51,620 nucleotides of DNA from Bdellovibrionota bacterium (GCA_044238365.1 JBIIDM010000004.1:1-51620), one strand, 5' to 3'. Positions 10,892 to 44,258 are shown, counted from the stretch's first letter. The notes: generated by a model not told the origin, from the sequence alone. Numbers and translations are program-made.

Positions 10892-13078
10892 TTATAGGTT
10901 GGGAGGAGAAATAAGACCCAATGCCTTTGCCGCTAACAATACGCCTCCTTCAAATGAAAATCCGTAGTGTATTAGGTATTCTGATAGCGGCCGTAGTATT
11001 TTTTGAATAGTTGCATTAATAGCATTCTTTTGCTGTGGAAATATGCAGTGACTGTCCGCATCAAGTACGGTATTCCAAAGACTTAATATAGTAGACGAAG
11101 GCTCTGTGATAAATTGGAGGTTCTTACACGTGTTAAGTAAGTCACCATCTAGTGAATTTCTCTCTGCGTAGAAAGTAATAAAACGCTCAGGCGCTTTAAA
11201 CAGTAGAGCTGATAAGTCAAAAATATCTCCATCGTGCTTATTGATTCGAAGTTCCGGGAAATTGCGACCCAGAACGAACATTCGTAAATTTTGATCAAAA
11301 TTGAAGGGCGGCGAACTTTCAACGTAGCAATCTATTGATGTCAAGAAGTCCTGTTCAGTGAAATCCGGGCGGTTTTTTAATAATTCTACTTTGTATTGGA
11401 TAGTTTCCTGAAGTGTTTTTAGGGTATAACGGTAGAGAAAGTTGGATATTAGGCTTCTAATTTCTTGGCTTATGTCACACATGCCAAGGATTGTTTCAAT
11501 CGTAGATTTTTTATTGAGCTGGCGTTTTGCTAATGAGCGGAACTTCCTCTGGGCCCGAATCTTTCCGACCTTCCGCGCTTTACAATCCTTCGATGTAATG
11601 TTTTCCATTTGGGACTCATATACGAGCTCCGGAGCTTTCGCACTCCACCCATAGGCAATGGCCTCAAGAGGGCACACTGAGTCTGGTATAATAACACGAT
11701 CATGCAATCCTGCGGGTGATCCGTAGGTGGTAATATCTTCATCAACTGTTATGGTGGAGGAAAACCTACATTTGAGCTCCTGTCTCAGAGTATTCGAAAC
11801 AGTGGGAGTGAAGAGGTGGCGGGATTGCGGCAACCATAGGTGCGGGGATGCAGCTATGGTAGGGTGAAAAATGTACTGAGATAGGAACGGGACAAGGGCC
11901 AATGTCTGAGGTTGGCAAGCCAATGGCTGGCTGCTGTGGAGCGATTCACAAGGAATGAATGCGAGTAGCGCGTCTTCGTATACTTCAGGTATCTCACGTG
12001 AAAAGAAAAAAGAGTGAGAAAAGATAATTCTGTTCGCAGGTATCAAGGCCACGATGGAATTATTTCGTGGAGGGGTTACGGCTATTGTGCCTTCGATTGC
12101 ACCTCCTCCCAGTCCGTGAAAAAGAAGATTCGCGTTCGGGGCAGTGATGCGAAGCGATTCATCTTTTGCGGTGACATATGTTGTTTCACAGTAGATAGGA
12201 AGTATTCGGTGTTTAATGTACTTTACCAAGGATTCAACCGCCTCAAAATCACCTAAGTCGCACGATGCTCCAAGCTTTACCGCAAGGTTCCAAGCGTCGA
12301 AGGGTGCAATGAGCAGGTGAGTATCATGGTTATTATTTATCTTGGCCTCAAGGAAAGGGACAATCGTCTCTAGCCCCTGTTTTATAATTTCCGAAGAAAT
12401 AACTCTTCGAGCAATCTCGTTCAGGATTGAATTTAGGCTTTCCTCACTGTGAGCGTGCTCTTGAAGGATTGTGCCAAGTATCATGGGAAACGGACAATTA
12501 AGGGGACTGTGAGCTTTTGGAGAATCTCCTGAGAGTGTCTGAATTTCGGAGAAGAACAAGTCAAGACAATATCTTTTAAGGATGGGCGCATACGTAAAGC
12601 ATTTGATAGCAGTCCGGAGGAAGTACATTTTTAACGAAGTAGAATGAGCCAACGAGGTGAAAAATGATTCGATTCGTTGTTGAGGATTCTTCGTCAGAGC
12701 AAGCGTTTCTAGCCAGTGTCTCCAGGAGCCAATCAAGATTGTGTCCAGAACCTGATAATAAAGAGATACGTAGTGAGATACCATTCGGGTCCCAAATGGC
12801 TCATCATTTGTCGTGGTATGAGAAATAGCAAGAGTTTCAAAGAGCCCTTCAATGTGCTCTTCGATATGCCGGATTGTTTCACATCCTTGCTCTATTATGG
12901 TGTTTATTGAAGTTGCTTGAGTGGCCTCTGAAATTTTTTTGGAAGCAAGCTTGGCATCCATTTGACGAAGTCCGCGTACTTTTTCATGAACTTCTATAAG
13001 TGATACTGGAGATAGCTGATTATCGAATGGTTGAGCTTTAAACGGAGAAGCTGAAGCCGTAGAATTCTTAAATGACAT
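10892..13078 (-). CDS. Large hypothetical protein, no recognisable domain
   Basis: Uninterrupted ORF (to 13147, 751 aa); likely start ATG 13078. Confidence 0.7.
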   Translation of the reverse strand: MSFKNSTASASPFKAQPFDNQLSPVSLIEVHEKVRGLRQMDAKLASKKISEATQATSINTIIEQGCETIRHIEEHIEGLFETLAISHTTTNDEPFGTRMVSHYVSLYYQVLDTILIGSWRHWLETLALTKNPQQRIESFFTSLAHSTSLKMYFLRTAIKCFTYAPILKRYCLDLFFSEIQTLSGDSPKAHSPLNCPFPMILGTILQEHAHSEESLNSILNEIARRVISSEIIKQGLETIVPFLEAKINNNHDTHLLIAPFDAWNLAVKLGASCDLGDFEAVESLVKYIKHRILPIYCETTYVTAKDESLRITAPNANLLFHGLGGGAIEGTIAVTPPRNNSIVALIPANRIIFSHSFFFSREIPEVYEDALLAFIPCESLHSSQPLACQPQTLALVPFLSQYIFHPTIAASPHLWLPQSRHLFTPTVSNTLRQELKCRFSSTITVDEDITTYGSPAGLHDRVIIPDSVCPLEAIAYGWSAKAPELVYESQMENITSKDCKARKVGKIRAQRKFRSLAKRQLNKKSTIETILGMCDISQEIRSLISNFLYRYTLKTLQETIQYKVELLKNRPDFTEQDFLTSIDCYVESSPPFNFDQNLRMFVLGRNFPELRINKHDGDIFDLSALLFKAPERFITFYAERNSLDGDLLNTCKNLQFITEPSSTILSLWNTVLDADSHCIFPQQKNAINATIQKILRPLSEYLIHYGFSFEGGVLLAAKALGLISPPNL

Positions 13079-13259
13079 AAGGATGGTAAGTTCAAAATGG
13101 TGGGTTTTCGCCTTCCGGTAGGGTACAATAAAGAGTTTCATAAACAAAAGAAAAAATTCACGTAATTGGTTGACCCTGTAGGATTTAGTTTTTATAGATT
13201 TGTCTGTAAAAGCCCCCTCAGGGGCCGATTTTTGAACAAAATCGGGGGTGAAAATATTA

Positions 13260-19642: not shown

Positions 19643-20614
19643 TTAAGGTGAGACCATAAATACAGATCTTAGTAGCACCTGATAAAGCCCATATGAAAGG
19701 ATCGCGGCCAACGCAGGAATCCAGTAATACTCAGTCGTGTAATTGTGTTGACGCTCCTTCTCTGAACTGGATTCGAGTTTGCTGATCTCATTATAAACCC
19801 CCCTAAGAGCGTTCAAGTCCTGCGCATTAAAGTAGACCCCTCTTGTCGCGGTTGCAATTTTTTTCAAGGTGTCTTCGTCAAAATCAGCCTGCGCAGCACT
19901 TCCTACTCCGATGGTATGCACTTTGATTCCGAATTTTTGGGCAAGTTTTGCTGCTTCTATTGGATTAAGCTTACCTGAGTTGTTTGCCCCATCGGTGAGA
20001 AGAATGATTGCGCGGCTCTCGTTTTTTAGGTTCGCAGTTCGCTTGACACCGAGACCGAGGCCATCACCTATTGCGGTGCCATTTCCAGCGATGCCGGGTC
20101 TTAATTGTTCCAGCAAGCTGAGAATAACCTTGTGATCAAGGGTCAGAGGTGCCTGAAGAAACGCTCCGTTTCCGAAAACAACCAAACCTATTCTGTCATC
20201 TGCTCGTTGTTCAACAAATTGTGATACGACGCTTTGAACCGCTTCAAGCCTGCTTATAGTATATTGGTTCGTAAGAAAGTCCGGAGTTGACATGCTTTCA
20301 GATACATCCAGCACTAACATAAGGTTTTTTCGTGATTTTTCATCTACTACAGTATGGACGCGATAGGGACGGCTCGCGCCAAGAGCCATAAATATCAACG
20401 TGAGCACAGAAAGGCAGGCTAGTACTGGTCTTCGGGCGCTCTCTCTGATATCTACAGGATATTTCTTGTTATCCGACAAGTCAGGGAGGGCAGCATACGC
20501 AACGGCTGTTCTCGTGCTAAACCTATTGATAATCAGCCGGACAATTGGGAGTGCGATCGGGATCACAAGGAAGATGGGGTGTCCGAGAATCAATGGGGTG
20601 TTTGGGTTGGTCAT
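19643..20614 (-). CDS. BatA-like von Willebrand factor A domain membrane protein
   Basis: MIDAS DVSESM, DRIGLVVF, APLTLDH, GTAIGDGL, LLTDGANN; N- and C-terminal TM segments. Confidence 0.92.
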   Translation of the reverse strand: MTNPNTPLILGHPIFLVIPIALPIVRLIINRFSTRTAVAYAALPDLSDNKKYPVDIRESARRPVLACLSVLTLIFMALGASRPYRVHTVVDEKSRKNLMLVLDVSESMSTPDFLTNQYTISRLEAVQSVVSQFVEQRADDRIGLVVFGNGAFLQAPLTLDHKVILSLLEQLRPGIAGNGTAIGDGLGLGVKRTANLKNESRAIILLTDGANNSGKLNPIEAAKLAQKFGIKVHTIGVGSAAQADFDEDTLKKIATATRGVYFNAQDLNALRGVYNEISKLESSSEKERQHNYTTEYYWIPALAAILSYGLYQVLLRSVFMVSP

Positions 20615-20629
20615 AACTGTACCTTTCTA

Positions 20630-20657
20630 ACCTGGGTTTTTTACTTCGAACTCAGGT
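20630..20657. repeat. Minimal family A remnant (two ends joined)
   Basis: ACCTGGGTT...TTACTTCGAACTCAGGT in the short gap between two moxR-cluster genes. Confidence 0.7.
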
Positions 20658-20660
20658 TTA

Positions 20661-21176
20661 TCATGCTTTAATGGGAGAGGTTCGTCTGCTTGTTTTTTCC
20701 TCGTTTTGTTGGCGCATCATCATGTCTCTTATAAGGCGAGCAATCGCATCGATGTTTTGCGTTTCCTGCGAGACATTTCCGGAGAAGCGCGAATGTTCCA
20801 GTTCGGTCAGGTGCCTGGCAAGTTCGTGCATCTCTGTCAAGCCACAGTTCGCGTTGCTCGATTGCAGAAAATCTTCCACCTCCGTCGCTGATAGCGCAAG
20901 AAAGTCTTGATCAGGAAAATATAACTGCAAGGCCCGTTTTATGATACTGGAGCTACGAGTCGCCACGGAAGCACTTGCATTTTGGGTAACTCCGTCGAGC
21001 TCCTTAAGCAAAACCTGATATGCCCTGGTTCTTGAGCTTTTTCTCTTCCTAGAAAGAAATAGTACGACAGTGAACGCAAAGATCGTGAGGACTCCGACCC
21101 AGAGCCACTCCTGTCCGCCCGGTTCGTAGGTAAACTGAGGCTGTATCGTTATGGGGTAGGGTGTTTCTTCGTTCAT
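20661..21176 (-). CDS. MoxR-cluster single-TM protein (DUF4381-like)
   Basis: TM helix followed by basic run RKRKSSR and helical domain; position between DUF58 and vWA genes. Confidence 0.7.
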   Translation of the reverse strand: MNEETPYPITIQPQFTYEPGGQEWLWVGVLTIFAFTVVLFLSRKRKSSRTRAYQVLLKELDGVTQNASASVATRSSSIIKRALQLYFPDQDFLALSATEVEDFLQSSNANCGLTEMHELARHLTELEHSRFSGNVSQETQNIDAIARLIRDMMMRQQNEEKTSRRTSPIKA

Positions 21177-22084
21177 TAGAGTGACGTTCTTCGGAGGAAT
21201 TTCATAAGTGACTGACCTACATCATCCTGTAGTGTAACATAGGTCCCGCGATGAGCTGCACATAGTGATGCAATAGTATCACGATGCGTAAGCTGCTCCT
21301 GGGTGAGAAAAGATCGCATCTTTTCTGATGAAGAGTTAATAATGCGCGAGATACCTGTTTCAGAATCCATCACTCGTGTAAGTCCAGCTCGGGGAAGCCA
21401 GGACTCGATTGAGGGCGAGATGTGCATACAGATGATCTTGTGGGCGGCTCCAATATGCTTAAGGCAGTCGCGAATCGCCTCGTGGTCAGGGGTAATAAAG
21501 TCGGATATAATGAACACGAGTGACGGGCGCCGAAGTTTGTTTTTAAGCAGTGTTGTTACTGCTCTAAAGTCAGTACCGGTGCGCTGGCGTACAGCGGAAT
21601 AAGTGAACGAATTTAAAGAGTGGAGTAACTGGGTTACCTGATGCCAATGAACCTTCGTCGATGAGGGGTCAGTAGCGGTCAGCGGACCATCCCCAAATAG
21701 TGATAAGCCGAATTCATCATGACTCTCACGAGCAAGAAATGCCAGCGATGCGGCTGCCTGAACGGCGTGCTGATGATGGATTGGTGTAAAGCAGTGGGAG
21801 AGGGATGAGGATACATCAACACAGGCCATTATTCGTAGCTGTCTCTCCTCTTCATAGCTTTTTACATAGGTGCGATCGTTCCGCGCGCTGGATTTCCAGT
21901 CAATTCGTCTAATATCATCTCCGGCACTGTATTCTCGAAGCTCAGTAAAGTTCAGGCCGGTACCCTTGAAGCGCGAGATATATTGGCCGACGAAATCGCT
22001 GCCGCCCGAGTCGTTGATTCGAATTCGGGAACGGCGCAAGGTCTCCTTGATACGCGGTGGAAGTAGACTTTCCAAGGTGCTCAT
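21176..22084 (-). CDS. DUF58 family protein (vWA-like)
   Basis: G.Y.SRFKGTG..F.ELREY..GDDIRRIDWK.SAR, DVSSS, ISDF; start at ATG 22084. Confidence 0.93.
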   Translation of the reverse strand: MSTLESLLPPRIKETLRRSRIRINDSGGSDFVGQYISRFKGTGLNFTELREYSAGDDIRRIDWKSSARNDRTYVKSYEEERQLRIMACVDVSSSLSHCFTPIHHQHAVQAAASLAFLARESHDEFGLSLFGDGPLTATDPSSTKVHWHQVTQLLHSLNSFTYSAVRQRTGTDFRAVTTLLKNKLRRPSLVFIISDFITPDHEAIRDCLKHIGAAHKIICMHISPSIESWLPRAGLTRVMDSETGISRIINSSSEKMRSFLTQEQLTHRDTIASLCAAHRGTYVTLQDDVGQSLMKFLRRTSL

Positions 22085-22095
22085 ACTCTTCAACT

Positions 22096-23115
22096 TCAGG
22101 GTGTAGGGATTTTAGCGAGAAGTGATGTTATGACGCCATCGGAAATCAATCCGTCACCAATGGCATCAAATGTAAGAAGAATGCGATGGCGGAGAATATC
22201 AGGAGCGAGGTCCTTTATGTCATCGGGGGTTACAAATTTTCGACCTTTTAAATAGGCGAGCGCTCTCGCGCAATGTTTGAGAGCCAGGCTTGCACGCGGT
22301 GAAGCTCCCCAGGCAATCGTGGACTTCATACCAAATTCGGACGGGTTGCGGGTGGCGTGAACCAATCGAACGATGTACGTATCGATCCGCGGGTCAACAT
22401 ATAGCATGCTTACCTCCTCGGAAATTTTGAGAAGCTCGGTGGGAGTCAGAACTGATGTAATTTCAGACTTATTGTTTTGCCCCTCTTTAGCGAGCATACC
22501 CGCGTGGAGACTTAATATCTTAAGTTCTTCGTCGAAGGACGGGTATCCCACTTTCAATTTCATCAGGAATCGGTCGAGTTGGGCTTCGGGTAGTTCATAG
22601 GTTCCGCTCTGTTCGATCGGGTTTTGAGTTGCTAGAACCATGAAAGGTTTAGGCAGCTGGTGCCGCACCCCAGCAATCGAGACGTGGTGTTCAGCCATTG
22701 CTTCGAGAAGGGCCGACTGTACCTTTGCAGGGGCTCTATTTATTTCATCAGCCAGCAGTAAATTGGTAAATACCGGGCCTTTGCGGAGGACAAACTCTCC
22801 CGTCTGGGGACGGTACACTTCGGTGCCAATGATGTCCGCCGGAAGGAGGTCCGGGGTAAATTGTACACGGTCCATTTTCCCCGCAATAGCGCTGCTCAGG
22901 CACATTAATGTCTTGGTTTTTGCCAAACCGGGCACGCCTTCTAACAGTACATGGCCTTGCACTATTAGTGCTATAAGTAACCTGTCAAGAAGATGATCCT
23001 GTCCAATGATAACCTTGGAGATTTCGCTTTTAACCGATGCAATTGGGCTGAACGTTAACGGTTCGGTATTTGGCGAACTTGAGTCCGAAGCGAATGAAGA
23101 AGAGCTGGAAAACAT
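22096..23115 (-). CDS. MoxR family AAA+ ATPase
   Basis: HVLLEGVPGLAKT, QFTPDLLPAD, LADEINRAPAKVQSALLEAM, ATQNPIEQ.GTY.LPEAQLDRF. Confidence 0.97.
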   Translation of the reverse strand: MFSSSSSFASDSSSPNTEPLTFSPIASVKSEISKVIIGQDHLLDRLLIALIVQGHVLLEGVPGLAKTKTLMCLSSAIAGKMDRVQFTPDLLPADIIGTEVYRPQTGEFVLRKGPVFTNLLLADEINRAPAKVQSALLEAMAEHHVSIAGVRHQLPKPFMVLATQNPIEQSGTYELPEAQLDRFLMKLKVGYPSFDEELKILSLHAGMLAKEGQNNKSEITSVLTPTELLKISEEVSMLYVDPRIDTYIVRLVHATRNPSEFGMKSTIAWGASPRASLALKHCARALAYLKGRKFVTPDDIKDLAPDILRHRILLTFDAIGDGLISDGVITSLLAKIPTP

Positions 23116-26774: not shown

Positions 26775-28835
26775 TTATTGACACTCGCCCACTGGAACAA
26801 CACAAAAGATGCCCCAATCTGCATGATTAATAAGTGGCCTGAAGATGGCGGGGGAGGAGGTGAGTATCTGCATCTCTACGGATCTTGGTTTTAATGAAAG
26901 CACGTAGCCAATTTTTTCCGATACCAACTTATTAATCCATTTGTCACTGGCGGCAGCGGCTTCTTTTGCGTCGGGAAAGAGCACTGCTTTGCCCGATTCA
27001 ACAGGCACGGGAGGAACGTAAAGTAGTGTATTTTGAAAGTTGAAGCCGAGAAAATGAAATAACAGGTGATTAGTAAGACGTTGATAAGGACCAGCGGTCA
27101 CAGCGATTTTATGGCCTTTTCCGAAGTATATTGAACTGGGAAGTGCTTGCACCCAATAATACTCTGGATTAACCTTCTCGGTGAGTTTAAAGTAGTCCAA
27201 CACAGGATTCGCGCGTAAGTATGTCGCTAAAGCAGTGCATAGTGACAACAAGACGATGGTGATACCAACCCGTAGATATCGGGAACGAAGTCGTATGAGG
27301 TAGAGTGCGATTGGTATTGTAGCAAAGAGTAGTAGGAGGAATTGTGTACCGCTTACGGGGTAGTATCGGGTGCGGGGTACCGCATTGAGTATGAGAAATG
27401 TTATCAATATAATAGGAATTAAGTACCAGAGAATATTCCGTGAGGGTCGCTCAAAAATGAAGAAGAGCGCCGAAACAGAATGGAGTAAGTAGCGACCCGA
27501 ATGGTAAAATACTCGGTTTAGCCTCATTGATGGCATTAACAGGGCAATAAGTCCACTAAAAAAAGTAGTTAGGCATAGTGTCGTTGCAAGTTTAGATCTA
27601 CGATAGGCAACCGGAATGGTGATAAAAAGAAGAACCAGCTCGGCACACCCCAAATAGCCGAACGCCAACCTGTGCCAGGAAAGGAAAAGTTGGGAGAGTT
27701 GCCCAACTTCTTCGAACAGTACATAGGGGACTGATTCAACACGACTCATATACCATTCTAGTGCCTGCGGTGCGTTGCCAAATCGAATTCCCAAGAATGA
27801 TACGGGTAGAGGAGAAAGCGGTAAGCCAGTTTCGCGTAAACTGTAAATAATCCAGGGTAGTGACGGTAGCAAAAATGACAGGCAAAATACCGTCAACGTC
27901 TTAAGCGCTGTCCTAGGATACTTCACAGCAACAAAACAAACAAAAAGTCCAAATACTGCGATTTGGGGTAGGATTATTGGTTTAATTCCGTAGCCAATTC
28001 CGAGAGAAAGTCCACACAGCCCTAAGCTATTGAAGTTACGGTCTTTAAATGCCTCCAATAGAAAGAGTGTTGCGGCCATCATGAAGAATGCAAGTTCAGT
28101 TTCAGTTTGAGCAAACCCAACACCCTCGCGGAGCAGAGGTAACCACCATATCAAGAGAGCTTGAACCCACCTCCACTCCGGGTTGGACCTTTCGTATGTA
28201 TAGGCCCAGATTGGTAGTGGAAGTAAGAAAAAAAGGACGAAATCAAAAATACTAACTAGAACATCATTGTTTGTGCCTAACATAAGGTATGAGAACAAGA
28301 CTTCGGTGTTGGCAGGCATCAGTTTATAAAATTGCCATCCACCAGGTAGTGCGAATGTGAAGAGTCCCTCGTTTTGGACGAATAGAGCAGCCTTTAAGCC
28401 TCTATAGGCGACATAATCCCACCCGATTACTGGCAAAATACAGCTTGCTACCATATGCAAGAATGTCAGTGCTATGGTAATTACGGAAAGGATGCAAACT
28501 GGCGAGCTAGGCCGTAAATAAAATTTCTTGAAGAGCATGCTTTCGGATAATGGAATTTTCGTAGATTCTCCGCCTTGGGCATTGATATATTGGGAACTTA
28601 GAAAAAGCGATCCAAATACAAGAAATACATTTAAGTTGTTGAACTGATTGAGGGGAGCCAGTAGCCAAAATATCCCGAGTTCCAGAGCAACATAAAGCAC
28701 AATGCTGATGGTACCCCGAACCATAATGTTACGATCCTTGGCAATAAGTTGTGCCAGGCAGATGCTCGAGGATATTACGAACGCCTGGCTTGTAAGGGCT
28801 ATCAGGACGGCAATCAAAAAGTAGGTGTTTGGCAT
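26775..28835 (-). CDS. Polytopic membrane protein, probable GT-C fold glycosyltransferase
   Basis: Many TM helices; WD...Y first-loop motif (GWDYVAY), G.G.K motif, RYL late motif, C-terminal soluble domain. Confidence 0.6.
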   Translation of the reverse strand: MPNTYFLIAVLIALTSQAFVISSSICLAQLIAKDRNIMVRGTISIVLYVALELGIFWLLAPLNQFNNLNVFLVFGSLFLSSQYINAQGGESTKIPLSESMLFKKFYLRPSSPVCILSVITIALTFLHMVASCILPVIGWDYVAYRGLKAALFVQNEGLFTFALPGGWQFYKLMPANTEVLFSYLMLGTNNDVLVSIFDFVLFFLLPLPIWAYTYERSNPEWRWVQALLIWWLPLLREGVGFAQTETELAFFMMAATLFLLEAFKDRNFNSLGLCGLSLGIGYGIKPIILPQIAVFGLFVCFVAVKYPRTALKTLTVFCLSFLLPSLPWIIYSLRETGLPLSPLPVSFLGIRFGNAPQALEWYMSRVESVPYVLFEEVGQLSQLFLSWHRLAFGYLGCAELVLLFITIPVAYRRSKLATTLCLTTFFSGLIALLMPSMRLNRVFYHSGRYLLHSVSALFFIFERPSRNILWYLIPIILITFLILNAVPRTRYYPVSGTQFLLLLFATIPIALYLIRLRSRYLRVGITIVLLSLCTALATYLRANPVLDYFKLTEKVNPEYYWVQALPSSIYFGKGHKIAVTAGPYQRLTNHLLFHFLGFNFQNTLLYVPPVPVESGKAVLFPDAKEAAAASDKWINKLVSEKIGYVLSLKPRSVEMQILTSSPAIFRPLINHADWGIFCVVPVGECQ

Positions 28836-35269: not shown

Positions 35270-35650
35270 ATGAGCATTACCCCTGATCGGCTCCTTCGGA
35301 TGCTTCACGATAGTAGGGCCAGAGGCCATGGACAACGCCTTAGACACGTTCAGGTTTCCGATAGATCAGGTAAAGATTTCGCTCTGCCTATGGGAGGCGC
35401 GGGCGAACTCCCCGGTGGTAAGGATCCTCAACGCCGGCTTGTTGCCGGATGCGTTTCAAAATTGAGAGCGCTCGGACTTACGCAGGTGGCAGCCATTTTT
35501 ACCTGGTCAGTTATACCTATTGCGCCGCTTTTGTCCCATCTCGGGATAATCATCTTTGGTCGTGAGTACGAAGATCAGCCGATGTGGTGGCAGGTGTTCA
35601 GCTCCCCGGAGCTACTGGCGTCGTTGAGTGATCAACTGCACGAGGAATAA
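35270..35650 (+). CDS. Hypothetical protein, possible first gene of the operon
   Basis: 126-aa ORF ending 3 nt before the next ATG. Confidence 0.5.
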   Translation: MSITPDRLLRMLHDSRARGHGQRLRHVQVSDRSGKDFALPMGGAGELPGGKDPQRRLVAGCVSKLRALGLTQVAAIFTWSVIPIAPLLSHLGIIIFGREYEDQPMWWQVFSSPELLASLSDQLHEE

Positions 35651-35653
35651 AGT

Positions 35654-36463
35654 ATGAGTGGGGTCGAGCACGCATCGCCGGCGATGATCGTTTTGCTTTT
35701 GGTGAGCCTGGGGCCCGTACTCTATTTTGTACGGTTATTTCGGCGCCATGAAGAGAAGCGCAACACGTACGTCAGGAGAATACCCGGCATCGATGCAATT
35801 GACGAATCGGTGGGGCACGCAGCTGAGGCAGGTCGACCTCTTAGTTTTTGCACTGGACTTACCGGGGTTGGCCCAACGTTGTACGCCTGCCTCGGAGTAC
35901 TGCATTATGTAACCCGAAAGACAGCCCGATTGAAGAATCCACTTTTTGTACCGCAGACGTCACCTGCTGCTATGGCTATTGTCGAAGACATCGTCAGAGA
36001 TGGTTATCGAATAGAGGGAAGAATAACGTCCTTTGACCCCCGACGAATTCGTTTTTTGTCCGAAGAGCAATTCGCCTTTGCGTCGGGATACATTGGTATG
36101 GTTCATCGTGAAAATGTTGGGGCAGCGTTCCTTTTCGGATCGTTTGCGGCGGAGTCTCTTATTCTTGCGGAAGCGGGACAACAGATCGGTGCCATGCAGG
36201 TTGCCGCGAGTGTGAGCCCCGAGCAGGTTGCCTTTTTCATATGTACCTGCGATTACACACTCATCGGAGAAGAATTATACGCTGCGTCAGCCTACCTTAG
36301 CCGTGAATCTGTCCAGATGGGAAGTTTGTACGGACAAGATCGCGCGAAACTTATATTCCTTATTATAATAGTCGTTGGAGTACTCTATTCGACCTTGATA
36401 GCAGTTTCTCCCCAATTCAATGTGGTCTCTTTAGAAGAGATTTTAATGGGAGGATGGTGGTAG
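35654..36463 (+). CDS. Conserved membrane protein (DUF6754-like)
   Basis: RRIPGIDAIDE.VG.AAE.GRP, QFAFASG, F.AESLILAEAG...GA.Q, CDYTLIGEELYAASAYLS; N- and C-terminal TM. Confidence 0.8.
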   Translation: MSGVEHASPAMIVLLLVSLGPVLYFVRLFRRHEEKRNTYVRRIPGIDAIDESVGHAAEAGRPLSFCTGLTGVGPTLYACLGVLHYVTRKTARLKNPLFVPQTSPAAMAIVEDIVRDGYRIEGRITSFDPRRIRFLSEEQFAFASGYIGMVHRENVGAAFLFGSFAAESLILAEAGQQIGAMQVAASVSPEQVAFFICTCDYTLIGEELYAASAYLSRESVQMGSLYGQDRAKLIFLIIIVVGVLYSTLIAVSPQFNVVSLEEILMGGWW

Positions 36464-37479
36464 TGGAAAGAAGTATCCGCTCAATTCTAATTGTTGGTGT
36501 TACGTTCTTGGGGGGTCTCTATTTCGTACTAGAGTTTCTGCTTCCTGCATCTGCGCTGAAGGCAATCGGAGTATTAGAAGCTCATGAAGCAATTACTAAT
36601 GGCTTTATTACCGTAGGATCCATGGCGTTGGCACTGGGAGTAGTTAATATAGTCATGGTTCACGGAAGTCGGATACTCTACCTTCGCCGTGACTGGGCCT
36701 ATAGTATCGTCTTGGTTATGGGTATGGTCATAATGGGAATCGTCTCATTTTGGGATTGGTATAACTCATTGCAAAGCTCGTCTCCCCAGACAAAGGCGGG
36801 TGTTTTAGCCGATTTTTCGCTTGATATTGCAGCGCAGATTAGGAATGAATCACATGTAGGCATATTGCCTGTAGAGGAACGCCTTGAGTATCTCAGGGAC
36901 GCAGTAGTCTTCTTTTTTGCCGATCTAACATTGAACGGGGAAAGTCTTGCTAAAAATATAGAAGTTCAAAAGTTTCTTGGGAAGTGTCGAGCAGACATTG
37001 CTGATATAAGGGCGGCGAATGCTGAAACACCTAACAATCTCGCTGCGCTTTCGGAGCATCTTCGATCTTACGGTGCGTATGTTAGTCAGGTATTACGGGA
37101 CGAGAGCAATAGATCGGTAATCGGGAGTGGTAATAAATTTCTGGTAGAAGGGCTCTTTAATTCTTTGGGCGCGGCCATGTTTTCACTGCTCTCTGTGTAT
37201 ATTGCGGCTGCCGCTTATAGAGCTTTTCGAATTCGAACTTTTGAGTCTGGTTTGATGATGGTATCGGCGGTAGTAGTAATTTTAGGTCAAACTTCATTTG
37301 GGGTGTATGTCTGGAGTGGGATGCCGGATTTTCGGCAGTGGTTGCTCGAGGTGCCTAACGCGGCGGCCTTTAGAGCAATTAAAATTGGTTCGAGTGTTGC
37401 GGCGCTAGTGATGGCATTTCGGATGTGGCTTTCGATTGAATCAGATTCATTTAGTAGAACAAACGATCGGGCGCTATGA
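36454..37479 (+). CDS. Conserved polytopic membrane protein
   Basis: Several TM helices around a helical extracytoplasmic domain; MFSLL..YIA.AAYRAFR.R..E and VPN.AA.RAI motifs. Confidence 0.85.
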   Translation: MVVVERSIRSILIVGVTFLGGLYFVLEFLLPASALKAIGVLEAHEAITNGFITVGSMALALGVVNIVMVHGSRILYLRRDWAYSIVLVMGMVIMGIVSFWDWYNSLQSSSPQTKAGVLADFSLDIAAQIRNESHVGILPVEERLEYLRDAVVFFFADLTLNGESLAKNIEVQKFLGKCRADIADIRAANAETPNNLAALSEHLRSYGAYVSQVLRDESNRSVIGSGNKFLVEGLFNSLGAAMFSLLSVYIAAAAYRAFRIRTFESGLMMVSAVVVILGQTSFGVYVWSGMPDFRQWLLEVPNAAAFRAIKIGSSVAALVMAFRMWLSIESDSFSRTNDRAL

Positions 37480-38345
37480 AGTTTCAGAGTGTAAAATCGG
37501 TGTTGGCACGAAGATTAATTTATATCGCGGTGATCCTCACGGTATTTATTCCACTCGCCTTCAAGGTTGCTATTGCCCCAGCCCGGTTAAAATCTGCAGA
37601 AGCTATAAAGTTGCTCGTCGACGAGTTGCCGAATGACTCGTTCGGAATGTTGTTTTTTGATTTTGGTCCTAGCACTCGCGCTGAGAATGAACCTCAGGCT
37701 GAGGTCATTCTGGAACATTTGTTACGGCGCCGAGTAAGGGTTGCTATATTTACCCTTCTACCTCTAGCTGAGGGGTTCTTAAAGAGTGTTCCCGAGCGGG
37801 TAATTAAAAGACTCGAAGCAGAAATGCCAGGTGAGAAGTGGGTATATGGCGTTGATTGGATCAATATGGGCTATCGGATCGGGGACTCTTTATTTTTACA
37901 GGGACTTGCTAAATCGGATGATATTCCAAAATATCTTGGCAAGGATTTCTCCGGGCTAAAGATCTCTGATTTGAAGGTATTCGCCAATGTTAAGACGTTG
38001 CGGGATATTGATATAGTTGGGCAGTTCAGTGGCGTTGTCGGGATTTTTGATTCTTACATCCAGTTTCTTCAGCAGGGCGGATATATTCCGACGATTATTC
38101 ATGGCTGTACTTCAATTACAATTCCTGAAGCGTATATATACCTTGACTCAGGTCAACTAAAGGGCATTCTTGAGGGGCTATCCGGTGCTGCTTGGTATTC
38201 GAAATTACTTAAAGATACCTTTCAGAAACGAGAGCCGGATCAGGCGCTGCTTGCTAATACGGCGCTGGGATTTTCGCAAATGCTGGTGCTTATTTTAATA
38301 GCTCTCGGTAATCTCAATATGATGTTCAAGGGGAGGGAGGGGTGA
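37476..38345 (+). CDS. Conserved membrane-anchored protein with alpha/beta extracytoplasmic domain
   Basis: N- and C-terminal TM; D..PS..AE..P, YG.DW.N.GY, Y..SGQL.G...GL.GAA.Y motifs; ATGA overlap. Confidence 0.85.
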   Translation: MKFQSVKSVLARRLIYIAVILTVFIPLAFKVAIAPARLKSAEAIKLLVDELPNDSFGMLFFDFGPSTRAENEPQAEVILEHLLRRRVRVAIFTLLPLAEGFLKSVPERVIKRLEAEMPGEKWVYGVDWINMGYRIGDSLFLQGLAKSDDIPKYLGKDFSGLKISDLKVFANVKTLRDIDIVGQFSGVVGIFDSYIQFLQQGGYIPTIIHGCTSITIPEAYIYLDSGQLKGILEGLSGAAWYSKLLKDTFQKREPDQALLANTALGFSQMLVLILIALGNLNMMFKGREG

Positions 38346-39046
38346 TGGGATGGGATGACGCCACCATTTTTGTTGGGGGTATAGCAACGCTGGGTATTTA
38401 CACCTTTCTCATTAAGGAAAACCCCGTTTATCGTTTCTTCGAGCACCTTTTTATTGGAATTGCGACCGGTTTTGTTCCGATACTTACCATTCAGAATTTT
38501 CTTTGGCCGAACATTCTTAGTCCACTTCTCGGGTTCGACGTTGTTGTATATCCGGATGGGTCAGTCGTCAAGGGCTATCAGTTTTCATACCTGGCTTATT
38601 TAGTGCCCATGGCCTTTGGGTCGTTGTATTATACTATTTTTAGCGCACGGTTCAGTTGGCTATCAAAGTTGGTTATTGGATTTTCGTTGGGAGCTGCGGC
38701 GGGGATGTCGTTTAAGGGTTTTTTCGCCGAAATGATTCCGCAACTTTTGAGTAGTTTTAAACCGCTGGTCGTGTTTAACGGGCCATCGCTTAACATTCTG
38801 TCATCCTTGAGCAATGTCATCTTTGTCGTCACTCTTCTGGTGGTAATGTGGTACTTTTTCTTTACGATTAAGTTCGAGGGGGCAGGAGCACGGGTGGTGA
38901 ATACCTCTGGACGATGGTTGATGATGGTTTGCTTCGGCGCATTCTTCGGGTCAACGGTGATGGCACGTATGGCGCTCCTTGTTGAACGTGTGGGTTTTAT
39001 GACGATTGAGTGGTGGGGTGTCGTGCTGAAATTATCGGGTACGTAA
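38342..39046 (+). CDS. Conserved polytopic membrane protein
   Basis: TL.IY.FL..ENP.YRF.EHLFIG, YFFFT, GRW.MM..FGA.FG.TVMAR; GTGA overlap. Confidence 0.85.
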   Translation: MMGWDDATIFVGGIATLGIYTFLIKENPVYRFFEHLFIGIATGFVPILTIQNFLWPNILSPLLGFDVVVYPDGSVVKGYQFSYLAYLVPMAFGSLYYTIFSARFSWLSKLVIGFSLGAAAGMSFKGFFAEMIPQLLSSFKPLVVFNGPSLNILSSLSNVIFVVTLLVVMWYFFFTIKFEGAGARVVNTSGRWLMMVCFGAFFGSTVMARMALLVERVGFMTIEWWGVVLKLSGT

Positions 39047-39047
39047 C

Positions 39048-40886
39048 ATGAAAAAGCCTATTGATGTCTCGTCCTTGTCCCATGTCATCGTTACCGACTG
39101 CGGTTCAACTACCACCAAGGCGTTGCTTTTTGAAAAGCAGGATGGTGTATGGAGACAAACACAACGAGGGGAGTCGCCGACAACGGTTGAGCGACCTATA
39201 GCCGATGTCACGGTAGGCGTTCATAATTCGTTTTTAGAAATTGAAGAATTATGCGGACGCTCGCTTTTAAAGCCTGATTCGATGGGGAGTAGCAGCGATC
39301 AGTGCCCGTTAATTATTCGGGATTCCGAAAACCAAAAGGACGGAGTGGATCTTTATCTATCCACCAGTTCTGCTGGTGGTGGTCTGCAAATGGTAGTCAC
39401 TGGTGTCGTTGGTTCGGTAAGTGCAGAGAGTGCGGAACGTGCGGCACTGGGTGCCGGTGCTATCGTTATGGATCGCCTTTCCACCGATGTTATTGGAGAG
39501 GATTATGAAGCGATTCAACGCTTGCGGCACTTAAAACCGGATATGATGTTGGTTGCTGGTGGATATGAAGGGGGGGCTCGAGCTCAGATAATTGATATAG
39601 TTGAACTGATAAAGGCAGCTGCTCCTCGACCGCGATTTGGGTCGTTAATGGCGTTACCGCTGATTTATGCTGGCAATAGTGCGTTAGTTGAGGAGATCGC
39701 CCATATCTGGGGGGCTGCAAATGCTATCACTGTTGTAGAGAATGTTCGCCCGAGCGTGTCCGAGGAACGACTAAATGGCGCACGCGATGCCATCCATGAG
39801 CTCTTTCTTACTCATGTGATGAGTCAGTCACCTGGCTATTCAAAATTATTGGAGTGGTCACCTGTTCCGGTAATGCCTACGCCAGCTGCCGTTGGTGATA
39901 TGGTACAGGCGTTCGCCAAAGAATCAGGAAAGCAAGTTTTATGCGTTGATATTGGTGGAGCTACCACTGATGTTTTTTCTACGGTTCGGGATAGAGGGGG
40001 CGAATTTATTTTTAACCGCACGGTTAGCGCAAACCTGGGCATGAGTTATTCAGTAGGAAATGTTTTACTCGAAGCGGGTGTGGAAAATATTCTGCGTTGG
40101 CTACCGTACACCACGAGCAAGGACGAAGTCTGTGATATTCTCCGGAACAAGATGATTCGCCCTACTTCTATTCCTTGTACGCTGGAGGAACTTTGGCTGG
40201 AGCAGGCGGTTTGTAGAGAAGCGCTGCGGTTGTCACTTGTGCAACATCGGGCGTTTGCAGTAAGTATTTCAACGAATATTGGTGCTGGAGGTATCTCGTC
40301 CGTCTTCAAACAGAAGTCTCGTCGTTATCAACTGGTAAACCCGATGGAACTTGATGTGGTGATTGGCTCGGGGGGTGTTTTGAGCCATGCACCATCGCGC
40401 CTCTCCGCTGCCCTAATGATGATAGAGGGTTTTTCGTTAGCAGGAATTACTGAGCTATGTGTTGATTCGATATTTATGATGCCTCATCTGGGAGTCTTCT
40501 CATCGATTCACCGGGACGCTGCTCTTTCAATATTTAATTCCGATTGCATTGTTCCAGTGGCAGTCAGTGTCGTGCCTAGTTACCTAGAGCGGGTAAAGGA
40601 ACGTGACCTTGCTGAGGTTTACGTTGAAGGAAGTTTAATTGGGACAGTTTCACGAGGATCCGTGCAACATATAGAAGTACGTCTTAATGAGATGGTGGAG
40701 ATCGAAGTAAGGCCAAAGGCCGCAGTGGATGTCGGGGGAGGAGTGGGGATGAGCGTTAGGCGAACGGTAAATGCCGGAATGGCGGGTTTCGTTCTTGATG
40801 GGCGAGGTGCTCCACTATTTGGACAATATAGTAACGTCAAGAATAACAGAGAAGTGTATAGCTCCCTTGGTCTTGATAAGGTATAA
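39048..40886 (+). CDS. GlmL/MutL (glutamate mutase L)-family ASKHA ATPase
   Basis: Phosphate-1 TDCGSTTTK, TSSAGGGL, phosphate-2 VDIGGATTDVFS, RTVSANLGMSYS, GSGGVLSHAP. Confidence 0.88.
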   Translation: MKKPIDVSSLSHVIVTDCGSTTTKALLFEKQDGVWRQTQRGESPTTVERPIADVTVGVHNSFLEIEELCGRSLLKPDSMGSSSDQCPLIIRDSENQKDGVDLYLSTSSAGGGLQMVVTGVVGSVSAESAERAALGAGAIVMDRLSTDVIGEDYEAIQRLRHLKPDMMLVAGGYEGGARAQIIDIVELIKAAAPRPRFGSLMALPLIYAGNSALVEEIAHIWGAANAITVVENVRPSVSEERLNGARDAIHELFLTHVMSQSPGYSKLLEWSPVPVMPTPAAVGDMVQAFAKESGKQVLCVDIGGATTDVFSTVRDRGGEFIFNRTVSANLGMSYSVGNVLLEAGVENILRWLPYTTSKDEVCDILRNKMIRPTSIPCTLEELWLEQAVCREALRLSLVQHRAFAVSISTNIGAGGISSVFKQKSRRYQLVNPMELDVVIGSGGVLSHAPSRLSAALMMIEGFSLAGITELCVDSIFMMPHLGVFSSIHRDAALSIFNSDCIVPVAVSVVPSYLERVKERDLAEVYVEGSLIGTVSRGSVQHIEVRLNEMVEIEVRPKAAVDVGGGVGMSVRRTVNAGMAGFVLDGRGAPLFGQYSNVKNNREVYSSLGLDKV

Positions 40887-40889
40887 AGT

Positions 40890-42011
40890 ATGTCGATAGC
40901 GCACGCCCTTACTCCATCTCTACAGTTGCTCGATAAAACTGCGATTCAAAGGATACGCGAGCTTCCGATTTCCGGGGAGTTGCTTGTAGCGATTGGAGAT
41001 GTCGTAACATCGGAGCAGATTGTTGCGAGGGCAATGTTACCCGGAGAACTTCTTGTAATGAGACTTCCCGAAAGTACGGGGCTCGATCCTGATGAGATAG
41101 GGGGGGGGCTTAGGGTCAAAGAAGGAGACGTAATTTCTGAAGGCCAGGTAGTTTGTGAGGTTACGGGGCTGTTTGGTTTTTTTCGGACAGTAGCCAAATC
41201 ACCTGTATCCGGAGTAGTAGAACACTTCTCCCCTACAACCGGTCATGTTTCGGTGCGTTTGTCCCCGCGTGAGTTAACGTTATCGGCCTATGTTAGCGGG
41301 AAGGTCGTGGATTCCCATGGTAGTCAGAGTGTGACTATTGAATGCTACTGTGATTTTGTCCAAGGTGTCTTTGGTATTGGAGGTCCTTGTCATGGGATGC
41401 TTGCAGTTCTTAAAGAAACCTTTAACGATGAACTTACCGAGGATAAGATACCTGATGATTGTCGCAGGAAGGTAGTGGTTGGGGGGAGTAATGTCTCTGT
41501 GAAGGCACTCAAGGCACTTGCGGCACGAGGAGCAGTTGGGTTAGTCACCGGCTCAATCGACAACCATACGCTAAGAGATTTTCTTCACTTCGATTTAGGG
41601 ATTGCGTTAACTGGCGACGAGGATATTCCGTTTACAGTTATCATAACTGAGGGTTTTGGATGTCTCGGTATGTCAAATCGTGCTCGCGATATCTTCGTTC
41701 AGAATGACGGAAGATTTATTTCTATGGACGGAACCACTCAGGTGCGAGCTGGAGCTGTACGACCTGAGGTCGTTATGCCCTTAGATGGGTCGCGAGTCGT
41801 TGGGTCTGAGCAATCGAAGTCTGGTGAAGGGCTGACGATTGGTAGTATGGTTCGCATTATTCGGGCTCCGTTTTTTGGTAGAATAGGTACAGTAACGGAT
41901 TTGCCAGTGTTGCCAATGAAGCTACCTACAGGTGCTTTTTCACGCGTGGCCAGTGTCAGGATCGGAAACGACGTGGTTGTTGTGCCTAGGGCGAATCTGG
42001 AAGTTACGTGA
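40890..42011 (+). CDS. Conserved hypothetical protein with barrel-sandwich-hybrid repeats and C-terminal KOW-like motif
   Basis: V.IGD.V and VKEGD.I..GQ...SPVSG.V repeats; QG.FGIGG, TEGFG, GTTQVRAG..RPE; GSMVRIIRAPFFGRIGTV; VPRANLE end. Confidence 0.8.
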   Translation: MSIAHALTPSLQLLDKTAIQRIRELPISGELLVAIGDVVTSEQIVARAMLPGELLVMRLPESTGLDPDEIGGGLRVKEGDVISEGQVVCEVTGLFGFFRTVAKSPVSGVVEHFSPTTGHVSVRLSPRELTLSAYVSGKVVDSHGSQSVTIECYCDFVQGVFGIGGPCHGMLAVLKETFNDELTEDKIPDDCRRKVVVGGSNVSVKALKALAARGAVGLVTGSIDNHTLRDFLHFDLGIALTGDEDIPFTVIITEGFGCLGMSNRARDIFVQNDGRFISMDGTTQVRAGAVRPEVVMPLDGSRVVGSEQSKSGEGLTIGSMVRIIRAPFFGRIGTVTDLPVLPMKLPTGAFSRVASVRIGNDVVVVPRANLEVT

Positions 42012-42692: not shown

Positions 42693-44258
42693 ATGTATTC
42701 TATTTATCAGTTTGATAAGAAAAGCAGAGAGCTCATAAAGATACCAGCCACTCCGGAAAACATTAAAGAAGTAATTTTGCCCCCTCCAGGGGTAGTAGGG
42801 TTCAGCAATCTTTTTGAACATCCGCCCACTAAAGGGTATTCAGTAATACCCACGCAACCGACCTCAAACGTTACTCTCCACCGTTTACTGAGTGAATTAC
42901 TCGGGTTAAGAATGGCATTTCCTTTACAGGGAAATATCATTTACGCTGAAAAAGATACGAGTGAAGTCGAGGCTTTCCTCAACTACCTTTGTCAGACTGG
43001 GATTATACAAAATAGAGCCTCAAGTCTAAGTTTGAAAGTTAAGGATCCTCTTGATATTGAGGCCATTGCAGCTACAGTGAAAGCTGCTAATTTAAGGATT
43101 CATCCTTATCAGCACCGCAGACCGTTGATAGAACTGTTTGATAGGTTTGGAGTTCTTTCTACGGTACCGGGGGGGTTCGACCTTTACGAAAGACTAGGTA
43201 ATAAGGCGACATTTCACACCTATCTTATGGATCATGGTGAGGAAAGCTTATGCGCTCCGATGCGCATGATAATTCATCAGGGAACCCAAACCGAGAGTTG
43301 GGTGGAAGAAATACGCAATATCATGGAGTATTCGGAAGGCTATCCTGAGGCGCTTGTATCGAGATTGTATATTGAAAAAGGAGAGCAAATCCTCTTGGAG
43401 GAGACCTCCAAGACTCCGTGGATCCAAACCATGGTCTTGCAGGATGCTCGCGGAGCAGGCGGGATGGGCACTATGGTTGTGTCCAGAAATACATGCAAAA
43501 CTAAATGGTTAGTTGTGCCTTCTGACGGAGGAGTCCAGGTAACTCTTCATTCATTTGAAGATCTGATTTCTCGGATAAGCAACCTCGTAGAAGAGTCGAC
43601 GATAACAGCGACTCCTTATCTAATCACAGAAGTCATCAACGATCAGGAGCAATCCTTTTCGTTCTGTCTTACGTGGCAAGATGATCATGTTGTTATTGCA
43701 GGGCCACATTGGCAGCGGCTAATCGATAAATCATTTGATGGTTTTTATTATAATGGACCGTCAAGTGAGGTTTCACATGTTGTTATAGCGAAGAATTTCA
43801 CGCTTCGCTTCGGCTTACATCTCTTGAAAAGAGGATTTTCGGCTAGTTTTCCAGTTCGCGCTGGAATCGACTTTTTTTACGCCATTCTTCCGAATGGAGA
43901 ACGTCGATTAATAGCCCAAGATCCAAACATGAGAGACACCGCCACGGTTGGACTTCCTATGGCGGCGTTAATGAGATATGGCTCGGAATTATTGAATGGC
44001 GATCTGGTCCTCAGCCAATCGGATCACGTAGCTATTCCTCAGCATGAAAAGTATCTGCAACTACAAGGTGTTCTTGATAGGTTGAGGTATTGCGGAGTGC
44101 CTTTGTTTGGCGTTGGCGAAACTGCAACTGGTATAATCTTACAATCTATACCAAAGTCACATGGAAAGCTTATCAGGCTCCTTGTCGGGTATTTTGCAAA
44201 AAACCAGGCTGACAGGAGTCAACTCGAGAGAGACTTTGCCAGAGCTTTTGCCGAATAA
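42693..44258 (+). CDS. Divergent ATP-grasp fold protein
   Basis: LGNKATFH, GAGGMGT loop, TPYL, AGIDFF and DPNMR (E.N.R equivalent) in ATP-grasp order; RBS-like GAGG/AGG upstream. Confidence 0.65.
   Translation: MYSIYQFDKKSRELIKIPATPENIKEVILPPPGVVGFSNLFEHPPTKGYSVIPTQPTSNVTLHRLLSELLGLRMAFPLQGNIIYAEKDTSEVEAFLNYLCQTGIIQNRASSLSLKVKDPLDIEAIAATVKAANLRIHPYQHRRPLIELFDRFGVLSTVPGGFDLYERLGNKATFHTYLMDHGEESLCAPMRMIIHQGTQTESWVEEIRNIMEYSEGYPEALVSRLYIEKGEQILLEETSKTPWIQTMVLQDARGAGGMGTMVVSRNTCKTKWLVVPSDGGVQVTLHSFEDLISRISNLVEESTITATPYLITEVINDQEQSFSFCLTWQDDHVVIAGPHWQRLIDKSFDGFYYNGPSSEVSHVVIAKNFTLRFGLHLLKRGFSASFPVRAGIDFFYAILPNGERRLIAQDPNMRDTATVGLPMAALMRYGSELLNGDLVLSQSDHVAIPQHEKYLQLQGVLDRLRYCGVPLFGVGETATGIILQSIPKSHGKLIRLLVGYFAKNQADRSQLERDFARAFAE

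Follow-up and report, generated by a model that had tools for sequence, protein, structure and literature searches.

ASKHA-fold ATPases that work with a dedicated partner subunit are known from the diol/glycerol dehydratase reactivase DdrA-DdrB and from EutA, in which an ASKHA/Hsp70-like ATPase carries out ATP-driven conformational work on a client; B12 enzymes are the clients that the diol dehydratase reactivase, EutA and also GlmL are believed to serve. In other systems, such as PilM-PilN-PilO, FtsA and MreB-RodZ, cytoplasmic ASKHA-fold proteins have bitopic or polytopic membrane partners, and in the mechanotransmission ABC systems MacB, FtsEX and LolCDE the cycle of a cytoplasmic ATPase moves extracytoplasmic domains, with no solute carried through the bilayer. 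Here we describe a row of seven genes, g1 to g7, in a stretch of 51,620 nt from a Bdellovibrionota bacterium (hereafter, the window), in which a small open reading frame (ORF; g1) and four membrane protein genes (g2 to g5) are followed by a GlmL-like ATPase (g6) and a soluble protein with a barrel-sandwich domain (g7); all seven ORFs lie on the + strand and span positions 35270-42011. These genes very probably form a dedicated membrane-linked module and not the accessory of a B12 mutase. We know of no described system with the composition of this module, which is known from genomic evidence only, and a literature search, with supplements and subscription journals outside its reach, returned nothing on DUF6754, on PF13941/TIGR01319 or on a membrane-linked GlmL-like ATPase.

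Each of the systems mentioned above shares some features with the module. The pairing of an ATPase with a partner is the only parallel established here with DdrA-DdrB and EutA, from which the module differs in the barrel-sandwich and KOW-like build of g7 and in the partners of g6, which are membrane proteins and not a B12 enzyme. PilM-PilN-PilO, FtsA and MreB-RodZ are resembled in architecture only: the module has no sequence match to them, its membrane partners are different and uncharacterised, and no pilus, division or elongation gene context is present at the module. MacB, FtsEX and LolCDE provide the proposed working model, the outward domains of the module being deduced from protein fusions and from the charge topology of g2; however, the module ATPase is of the ASKHA and not of the ABC type, there is no subunit homology, and the mechanism of the module is one that we infer. 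RnfC and NqrA share with g7 the N-terminal barrel-sandwich hybrid domain, whereas g2-g5 are not Rnf or Nqr subunits. The comparison with GlmL/MutL is treated below together with g6.

Gene organization of the module

The row opens with g1 (35270-35650, +; 126 aa), a small ORF in operon position 1 with no Pfam match, followed by g2 (35654-36463, +; 269 aa), which matches DUF6754 (PF20539) with an E of 1.4e-75 and 254.2 bits against a gathering score of 27 bits. Three membrane proteins without a Pfam match come next, namely g3 (36454-37479, +; 341 aa), g4 (37476-38345, +; 289 aa) and g5 (38342-39046, +; 234 aa, with a GTG start), and the row is completed by g6 (39048-40886, +; 612 aa), an ASKHA-fold ATPase by its match to Pfam MutL (PF13941, E 1e-107), and by g7 (40890-42011, +; 373 aa), with a weak KOW match at residues 318-337 (E 0.0015). 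Between g1 and g2 there are 3 nt; g2 and g3 overlap by 10 nt, and g3 and g4, like g4 and g5, by 4 nt, while g5 and g6 are 1 nt and g6 and g7 3 nt apart. Hydropathy gives g2 and g4 a single helix at each end, flanking a domain of ~200 aa, while g3 and g5 come out as polytopic and g6 and g7 as soluble proteins. The original prediction, made from the window alone, had named a row of co-oriented, tightly packed genes encoding a DUF6754-like protein, two polytopic membrane proteins, a membrane-anchored protein (here g4), an ASKHA ATPase with both phosphate motifs intact and a barrel-sandwich/KOW protein, and this composition is borne out by the seven ORFs, with their gaps of 1-3 nt or overlaps of 4-10 nt, and by the family matches, hydropathy and motifs reported here and in the following sections. 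The prediction also gave g4 a putative alpha/beta fold.

Conservation and co-occurrence of the gene set

The arrangement of the window is well preserved among close relatives. Among twelve loci from the same order, g2-g3-g4-g5-g6-g7 is kept in all ten with enough flank, and the two short contigs hold a fitting part of it. The ATPase is found in 40 of the 41 genomes of that order, including 31/31 of high quality, and at the level of the phylum PF13941 is single-copy and near-universal, with a match in 121/124 genomes and in all 73 of the high-quality ones. Beyond the phylum, scanning of contigs with g6 and then with an alignment of g6 gave at least 599 relatives among the 600 matches listed, and the phyla in which the module is present include Nitrospirota, Planctomycetota, Latescibacterota, Elusimicrobiota and Myxococcota. 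Named carriers are Nitrospira, Nitrospinae, Latescibacterota, Kofleriaceae, Binatia, Syntrophobacterales, Elusimicrobia, Armatimonadota, Neomarinimicrobiota, Ignavibacteriales and a metagenome-assembled genome (MAG) of Bacillota, as well as, within Planctomycetota, Brocadia, Singulisphaera, Schlesneria and a Phycisphaera-labelled MAG; their ATPases are 46-58% identical to g6. Relatives of the ATPase that were scored number more than 8000.

A survey of 99 distinct g6 loci from many phyla (two duplicates removed) returned two complete gene orders, g6-g7-g2-g3-g4-g5 in 36/99 loci and the order of the window, g2-g3-g4-g5-g6-g7, in 15/99 (13 listed forward and 2 reversed); 11/99 loci have g6-g7 only, 17/99 have g6 only, and the remaining ones show a partial arrangement, mostly at contig ends. 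When only well-flanked loci are considered (n = 51, the flanks of g6 being 6 kb or more on the left and 6.5 kb or more on the right), 33 have the six larger genes complete. Since the gene set is kept in two circularly permuted orders, a functional tie is better supported than it would be by a single order. The module is made up of two separable blocks, a soluble one (small gene, g6 and g7) and a membrane one (g2-g5). The two blocks are found together also at genome scale, as DUF6754 is encoded elsewhere in all five genomes with no membrane genes within 7 kb of g6. In a Bacillota-type phylum represented by 201 genomes, DUF6754 is present in 14 and the g7 profile in 13, with 12 genomes having both, 2 DUF6754 only (in one case a match that is weak and partial), 1 g7 only and 186 neither, which should be taken as a pattern and not as a statistic because kin genomes are not independent and such counts overstate independence. 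Synteny of the membrane genes with this ATPase clade elsewhere, and co-occurrence of the genes across genomes, on both of which the earlier proposal of a membrane complex depended, are thus observed.

Some genomes carry the module in several copies, and the division into blocks is plainest in one of them. This Bacillota-type genome (L133 G264:C26, L134 G264:C50 and L135 G264:C45) has three tandem copies of g2-g3-g4-g5, ~3.35 kb each, on a separate contig two tandem copies of small gene-g6-g7, and on a third contig a membrane block with a g6-g7 pair. DUF6754 is matched 11 times in this genome and 12 times in another, and the maxima per genome in the Bacillota-type lineage are 12 for DUF6754, 10 for g7-type and 7 for PF13941 proteins.

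The ATPase g6 and its separation from GlmL

GlmL/MutL (NF040745; PF13941) and g6 belong to the same Pfam family and to the ASKHA fold family, have nucleotide motifs in common and are alignable over g6 residues 17-498. The match of g6 to PF13941 reaches 361.2 bits (gathering score 27 bits) and covers the model from 1 to 450 of 450, at g6 residues 13-500. Three motifs, D17-x-G-S-T-T-x-K24, D301-x-G-G-A-T-T-D308 and S441-G-G443, are invariant in 20 orthologues, and we take them to be the phosphate-1, phosphate-2 and adenosine motifs of the ASKHA fold. Across phyla g6 is 46-60% identical, and it has an extra conserved C-terminal domain (~500-612) with the pattern VDxGxGxG...DGRGRP. By contrast, the proteins whose genes immediately precede that of GlmE are ~450-460 aa long, only 28-30% identical to g6 over the alignable part, and without its C-terminal part, which makes g6 ~150 aa longer than GlmL; in addition, g6 is never beside glmS/glmE in the material studied here, where g7 is its neighbour or fusion partner and the four membrane genes are linked to it.

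Family scores and phylogeny separate the two kinds of protein. With none of the three GlmL-type models of NCBIfam does g6 itself reach the cut-off (191.4 against 475 bits for NF040745, 178 against 600 bits, and 157.0 against 204 bits for TIGR01319). With NF040745 and TIGR01319, respectively, the ATPases of four modules from other phyla reach 148-243 and 110-184 bits, as compared with 603-647 and 438-489 bits for four GlmE-adjacent proteins. In a maximum-likelihood tree of 30 proteins, the 23 module ATPases are split from the 7 mutase-linked ones with a support of 100/100 and by a long branch, and one genome has both kinds of PF13941 protein, one of 451 aa beside a B12-binding/MutE-like gene and others of ~600 aa beside g7. 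On scores and tree, then, g6 is not GlmL, and belongs to a clade of its own, apart from the mutase-linked GlmL. In the source databases, these ATPases carry the names ‘glutamate mutase L’, ‘methylaspartate mutase’ and ‘uncharacterized protein (TIGR01319 family)’, and the warning in the original prediction that a ‘glutamate mutase L’ label would mislead agrees with the sub-cut-off scores, the low identity and the separate clade. No match to g6 was found in the PDB by sequence or profile, nor any Pfam match to the FtsA, MreB, PilM, ParM, DDR or EutA families (E<=0.01), and among 14 model-organism control genomes none has DUF6754 and none a MutL match above the cut-off. In the genome with both kinds, at L135:2021-5025, the 451-aa PF13941 protein comes directly after one of 553 aa, in which a B12-binding domain is accompanied by a MutE-like match that is weak and sub-threshold; the two make up a pair of the GlmL type, unusual in that the mutase-like partner is a fusion.

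No B12 mutase accompanies this clade of ATPases. GlmE (PF06368) was not found in the whole genome to which the window belongs (94.7% complete), in keeping with the earlier statement that the window holds no mutase gene, and it was found in 0/124 genomes of the phylum and in 0/5 module genomes from other phyla. The same search was positive in 53 of the 201 genomes of the Bacillota-type phylum, and so the method works; in that phylum GlmE is present in 3 of the 14 genomes with DUF6754, which is about chance level. The genome of the window does encode, on other contigs, a methylmalonyl-CoA mutase (MCM) and a 1227-aa protein with a B12-binding domain. MCM-type genes are present in 2/5 module genomes and in 8/14 control genomes that lack the module. 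The view that no B12 mutase tracks the clade, which a co-evolving mutase would have overturned, therefore stands.

The g7 partner and its pairing with g6

The N-terminus of g7 is of the barrel-sandwich type, as among 19 orthologues RnfC_N is matched in 16, Biotin_lipoyl in 14 and NQRA_N in 6 (E<=1), a profile-profile comparison aligns g7 residues 36-115 with RnfC 13-83 (probability 88%, E 3e-6), and in g6-g7 fusions the barrel-sandwich-type matches pass the Pfam cut-offs. The centre of the protein is Gly-rich (QGxFGxGG, and the invariant TEGFG and TQxRAGxxRPE) and is followed by a KOW-like C-terminal part. Searches by sequence and profile in the PDB gave for g7 only a weak match to the KOW domain of NusG (0.017), and in the ESM Atlas the matches were confined to the family of g7 itself, tagged as barrel-sandwich and KOW. 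In biotinyl/lipoyl domains the modified lysine is expected at what we take to be the hairpin tip, and no conserved Lys is present in the corresponding columns (near ‘AExxGLFG’) of the 19 orthologues, so that g7 does not look like a biotinyl or lipoyl carrier. Full homology to RnfC/NqrA was also considered and rejected, as only the N-terminal domain aligns and no 51K, SLBB or Fe-S part is present.

Genomic data tie g7 closely to g6. The two genes adjoin in 76 of the 91 loci with enough right flank, and all of the 32 long g7 homologues carry PF13941, 29 of them measuring 989-1022 aa. BLAST of six long homologues placed g6 N-terminally and g7 after it (three are full-length, two are cut by the contig end and one is divergent). 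We therefore take g6-g7 to be a putative two-subunit ATPase, sometimes fused into one chain. The only place where the pair is pulled apart is in four Latescibacterota loci (L063, L076, L091 and L096), in which ~4.4 kb is inserted between g6 and g7; the insert of L076 contains an Opp-type ABC permease gene (BPD_transp_1).

The membrane block g2-g5

The two membrane helices of g2 are at residues 11-29 and 233-251 and enclose a core of ~200 aa with an invariant C-D-Y-T...G-E-E motif. In 13 orthologues, K/R residues are 0 before helix 1 and on average 4.9 after it, and owing to this asymmetry the conserved core should face the cytoplasm and both termini the outside. DUF6754 proteins longer than usual number 1427, and five of six examined have a Pfam-detectable domain of extracytoplasmic type, the sixth having an N-terminal extension of ~1200 aa without an assigned domain. 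The fused domains are PQQ/BamB-like beta-propeller and FN3 on the N-terminal side of DUF6754, and PKD and He_PIG Ig on the C-terminal side; the presence of extracytoplasmic-type fusions at either terminus gives independent support for outward termini of g2.

Of the other three proteins, g3 has ~3 helices, a variable loop (~100-233) and then 2-3 helices with a conserved YIAAAAYRAFR motif, and the loop of a Kofleriaceae orthologue gives a weak PEGA match (E 0.01). The helices of g4, at residues 15-33 and 257-275, flank a domain of ~220 aa with invariant D62, E70, H81, D157, T212 and Q227, into which, in one relative, a CARDB domain is inserted; this family counts 4534 representatives at 50% identity (E<=0.001). 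The single PEGA and CARDB matches hint that the g3 loop and the g4 domain may also face outward. With 4-6 helices and a conserved FGAxFGxTVMARxxLLxxR motif, g5 resembles g3 in having conserved charged residues in or near the helices. No Pfam family is matched by g3, g4 or g5 even at E<=1 (19 orthologues). Matches to the ABC, P-type and ECF transporter families are lacking for g1-g7 in both Pfam and NCBIfam, and for the 19 orthologues of g3-g5 at E<=1. In the PDB, sequence and profile searches gave no match for g2 and, for g4, one high-scoring row with no single stretch passing, which was set aside; for g4 the named clusters of the ESM Atlas held no usable match. Paralogy of g2 with g4 and of g3 with g5 was considered and dropped, homology being undetectable in both cases. 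In two Planctomycetota loci (L026:2703-4406 and L027:1414-3315), the g5 match comes in two pieces ~0.9-1.2 kb apart, which suggests a large loop insertion or a split gene.

The small leading gene

Clustering of every ORF from 101 loci uncovered a further conserved component, a small gene of ~80-130 aa with the motif ..RRLxxPAIxFLExxKPL.. and no Pfam match, found in 67 of the 99 distinct loci. Its place is immediately 5' of g2 in one gene order and of g6 in the other, and it thus leads the operon in both. In the window this position is occupied by g1, and in most relatives of the same order by a recognisable copy of the small gene. Among the 372 frames of the window, that of g1 ranks first for two small-gene profiles, with E of 0.2 and 0.27, values at which homology to the conserved small gene is not established. 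The frame is open in contigs of four other public runs (lake-water/freshwater assemblies), where g1 shows 9 synonymous and 11 non-synonymous differences and one in-frame insertion of 3 nt (in one run), and g2, over twice the length, 4 synonymous and 1 non-synonymous differences. We read g1, from this pattern, as a probably genuine and fast-evolving gene. Its variation is ~8x denser than that of g2 (20 sites in 381 nt and 5 in 810 nt, respectively).

Additional ORFs accompany the small gene in some lineages. Just 5' of it, 25 Planctomycetota-/Latescibacterota-type loci (e.g., L028:6239-6673, L037:3882-4397 and L063:6237-6674) have an extra conserved ORF with two membrane helices and, in one member, a faint C-terminal bPH_6 match (E 0.018), which may be an eighth, lineage-restricted component. 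Several relatives in the phylum of the window have, directly 5' of the small gene, an ORF of 220-340 aa (L015:2590-3537, L016:2961-3812, L020:2955-3833, L022:3571-4242, L023:9392-10399 and L072:1093-2097) that starts like a signal peptide and contains a long coiled-coil-like region of charged character, without a Pfam match in the two examined (L015 and L023) and without a counterpart in the window.

Surroundings of the module

The module is set among housekeeping genes, namely SMC, FtsY, purH, purD, proC, pyrF, pgsA, LolA and a MoxR-DUF58-VWA set. When SMC, FtsY, a 144-aa minus-strand ORF, a 521-aa ORF and mtnB were used as flank queries, none was kept beside the module in relatives. Similarly, neighbours beyond the seven genes have no common theme across loci, the Memo-like, Opp ABC, Fab, LplA, PilT-like, TldD/PmbA and GyrA genes all being lineage-specific; the PilT-like (T2SSE) ATPase gene, a few kb 5' of the module in 8 loci of the phylum of the window (among them L025:1014-2060 and L019:2684-3844), is probably a case of lineage synteny and not of a functional tie. 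At the operon, riboswitches and other RNA families gave 0 matches in the window and in six other loci, and a promoter and terminator scan gave no useful excess over shuffles. None of the RNA runs was listed as containing the stretch, a result that has no bearing on its expression.

Elsewhere in the window, the MoxR AAA ATPase, DUF58, DUF4381 and VWA genes form a row at 19643-23115 (-), of the MoxR-VWA type, the function of which is poorly understood, and an 882-aa protein encoded at 16231-18879 (-) consists of a Polysacc_synt_3 flippase-type membrane part fused to a GT4 glycosyltransferase. Large ORFs without a Pfam match (E<=1e-5) are present at 8936-10660 (+; 574 aa), 10892-13147 (-; 751 aa), 26775-28835 (-; 686 aa) and 42693-44258 (+; 521 aa), the last of which adjoins the module downstream and is not kept at that place in relatives.

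Discussion

As to what the module does, we tentatively propose that ATP-driven work is relayed across the membrane to its outside face, in the service of the envelope or the cell surface, a reading that we hold plausible, if somewhat short of probable. The g6-g7 ATPase would bind the membrane block from its cytoplasmic side, with the DUF6754 domain as the likeliest docking site, and ATP binding and hydrolysis by g6 would power a conformational cycle comparable to those of Hsp70-type and reactivase-type ASKHA proteins. The membrane subunits would then relay this cycle to the outward parts, that is, to the g3 loop, perhaps to the g4 domain and, in other lineages, to PKD, Ig, FN3 or beta-propeller modules. 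The output would be envelope or surface work, for instance the assembly, anchoring or release of a macromolecule outside the membrane, and not the uptake of a small solute; work on the outside is favoured because relatives fuse the domains just mentioned to the outward termini of DUF6754. The fuller claim, that this is an undescribed trans-membrane mechanochemical machine with a barrel-sandwich/KOW partner and a motor of the ASKHA class in place of an ABC, AAA+ or P-type ATPase, which acts on envelope or surface through outward domains swapped between lineages and is a core gene set in several large, poorly studied phyla, is more doubtful still, and we put it forward as a possibility on the unlikely side.

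Several observations weigh against this proposal. The ATPase activity of g6 is predicted from its motifs, and the link of g6-g7 to the membrane proteins is deduced from genomic evidence, which includes the co-occurrence counts among kin genomes discussed above. This linkage is not obligatory, as g6 stands alone in 5/51 and only with g7 in 6/51 of the well-flanked loci. The proteins of the window itself have no PKD, Ig or propeller modules, so that the case for a surface role is taken over from relatives; for the g4 domain, the charge rule points to neither side clearly, and the hints of an outside position for g3 and g4 come from one relative each. Finally, up to 12 DUF6754 copies per genome would also fit a family of substrate-specific transporters.

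The last point leads to the example given by the original prediction, in which the ATPase serves a membrane complex such as a transporter; the genetic tie between ATPase and membrane genes is upheld by the present data, while the outward fusions favour envelope or surface work over solute uptake. A new class of ATP-driven transporter for a small solute or ion, with g3 and g5 as the pathway and g6-g7 as the energiser, would account for the charged residues that are conserved in or close to the helices of the two polytopic proteins and for a cytoplasmic ATPase genetically tied to them, and the multi-copy families and tandem membrane blocks resemble substrate-specific expansions, which keep this explanation alive. 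However, none of the four membrane proteins matches a transporter family, no riboswitch or other RNA family is seen at the operon at the seven loci searched, no solute-binding protein is conserved (Opp-type genes occur only as a lineage-specific insertion), and fusions of PKD, Ig, FN3 and beta-propeller domains to a membrane subunit are unusual for solute carriers. Taken together, the outward modules and the lack of transporter family, riboswitch and conserved binding protein in these searches argue against a simple solute carrier; to our knowledge, moreover, no ASKHA ATPase drives a transporter, and we consider this explanation unlikely. It is less likely again that g6-g7 is a chaperone, reactivase or kinase for a membrane enzyme formed by g2-g5, with its centre at the C-D-Y-T/G-E-E motif of g2 or at the D/E/H residues of g4. 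A two-subunit ATPase that is also found fused does recall the two-subunit reactivases, but no enzyme family is detectable and no cofactor-binding motif was identified in g2-g5, and the outward binding modules would be left unexplained.

Two further explanations concern g6 itself. As an actin-like polymer anchored by the membrane block, it would be a cytoskeletal element comparable to FtsA, MreB or PilM, with a role in shape, division or positioning. Such a role would agree with the ASKHA fold family and the intact nucleotide motifs, with a near-universal, single-copy gene in the phylum that is 46-60% identical across phyla, and with the presence of g6 in Planctomycetota; however, no Pfam match to FtsA, MreB, PilM or ParM was found (E<=0.01), up to 7 PF13941 and 10-12 partner or DUF6754 copies per genome would be odd for a housekeeping cytoskeleton, and we know of no GlmL-family protein that polymerises, all of which makes a polymer improbable. 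That g6 is an ordinary GlmL-type accessory of a distant B12 mutase, for example methylmalonyl-CoA mutase, with membrane neighbours acquired by chance, is suggested by the ‘glutamate mutase L’ and ‘methylaspartate mutase’ annotations in the sources, and the genome of the window has an MCM-type gene and the 1227-aa B12-binding protein. This explanation is already contradicted and highly improbable: g6 is under all NCBIfam GlmL cut-offs, which true GlmL proteins pass, and falls in a separate clade; GlmE was found in none of the 124 genomes of the phylum in a search with a working positive control; MCM is no more than occasional in module genomes (2/5) and is common in controls without the module (8/14); the membrane genes accompany it as conserved partners in both gene orders and in many phyla; and a short GlmL-type gene stands beside a mutase-like gene in a genome that also holds g6-type genes. 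What remains best founded is the dedicated membrane-linked module, for which relayed work at the outside face is the mechanism we propose.

As g3, g4 and g5 have no Pfam family and g2 is a DUF, the membrane block has no coverage in reference resources, and the label ‘glutamate mutase L’ can seed a false step of the methylaspartate pathway in metabolic reconstructions of, among others, Nitrospira, anammox bacteria and Planctomycetota. Provided that the membrane link is true, the module would represent a new type of motor that couples ATP to work at or across the bacterial membrane, and its seven genes would be a defined target for genetics in tractable Planctomycetota or Myxococcota.

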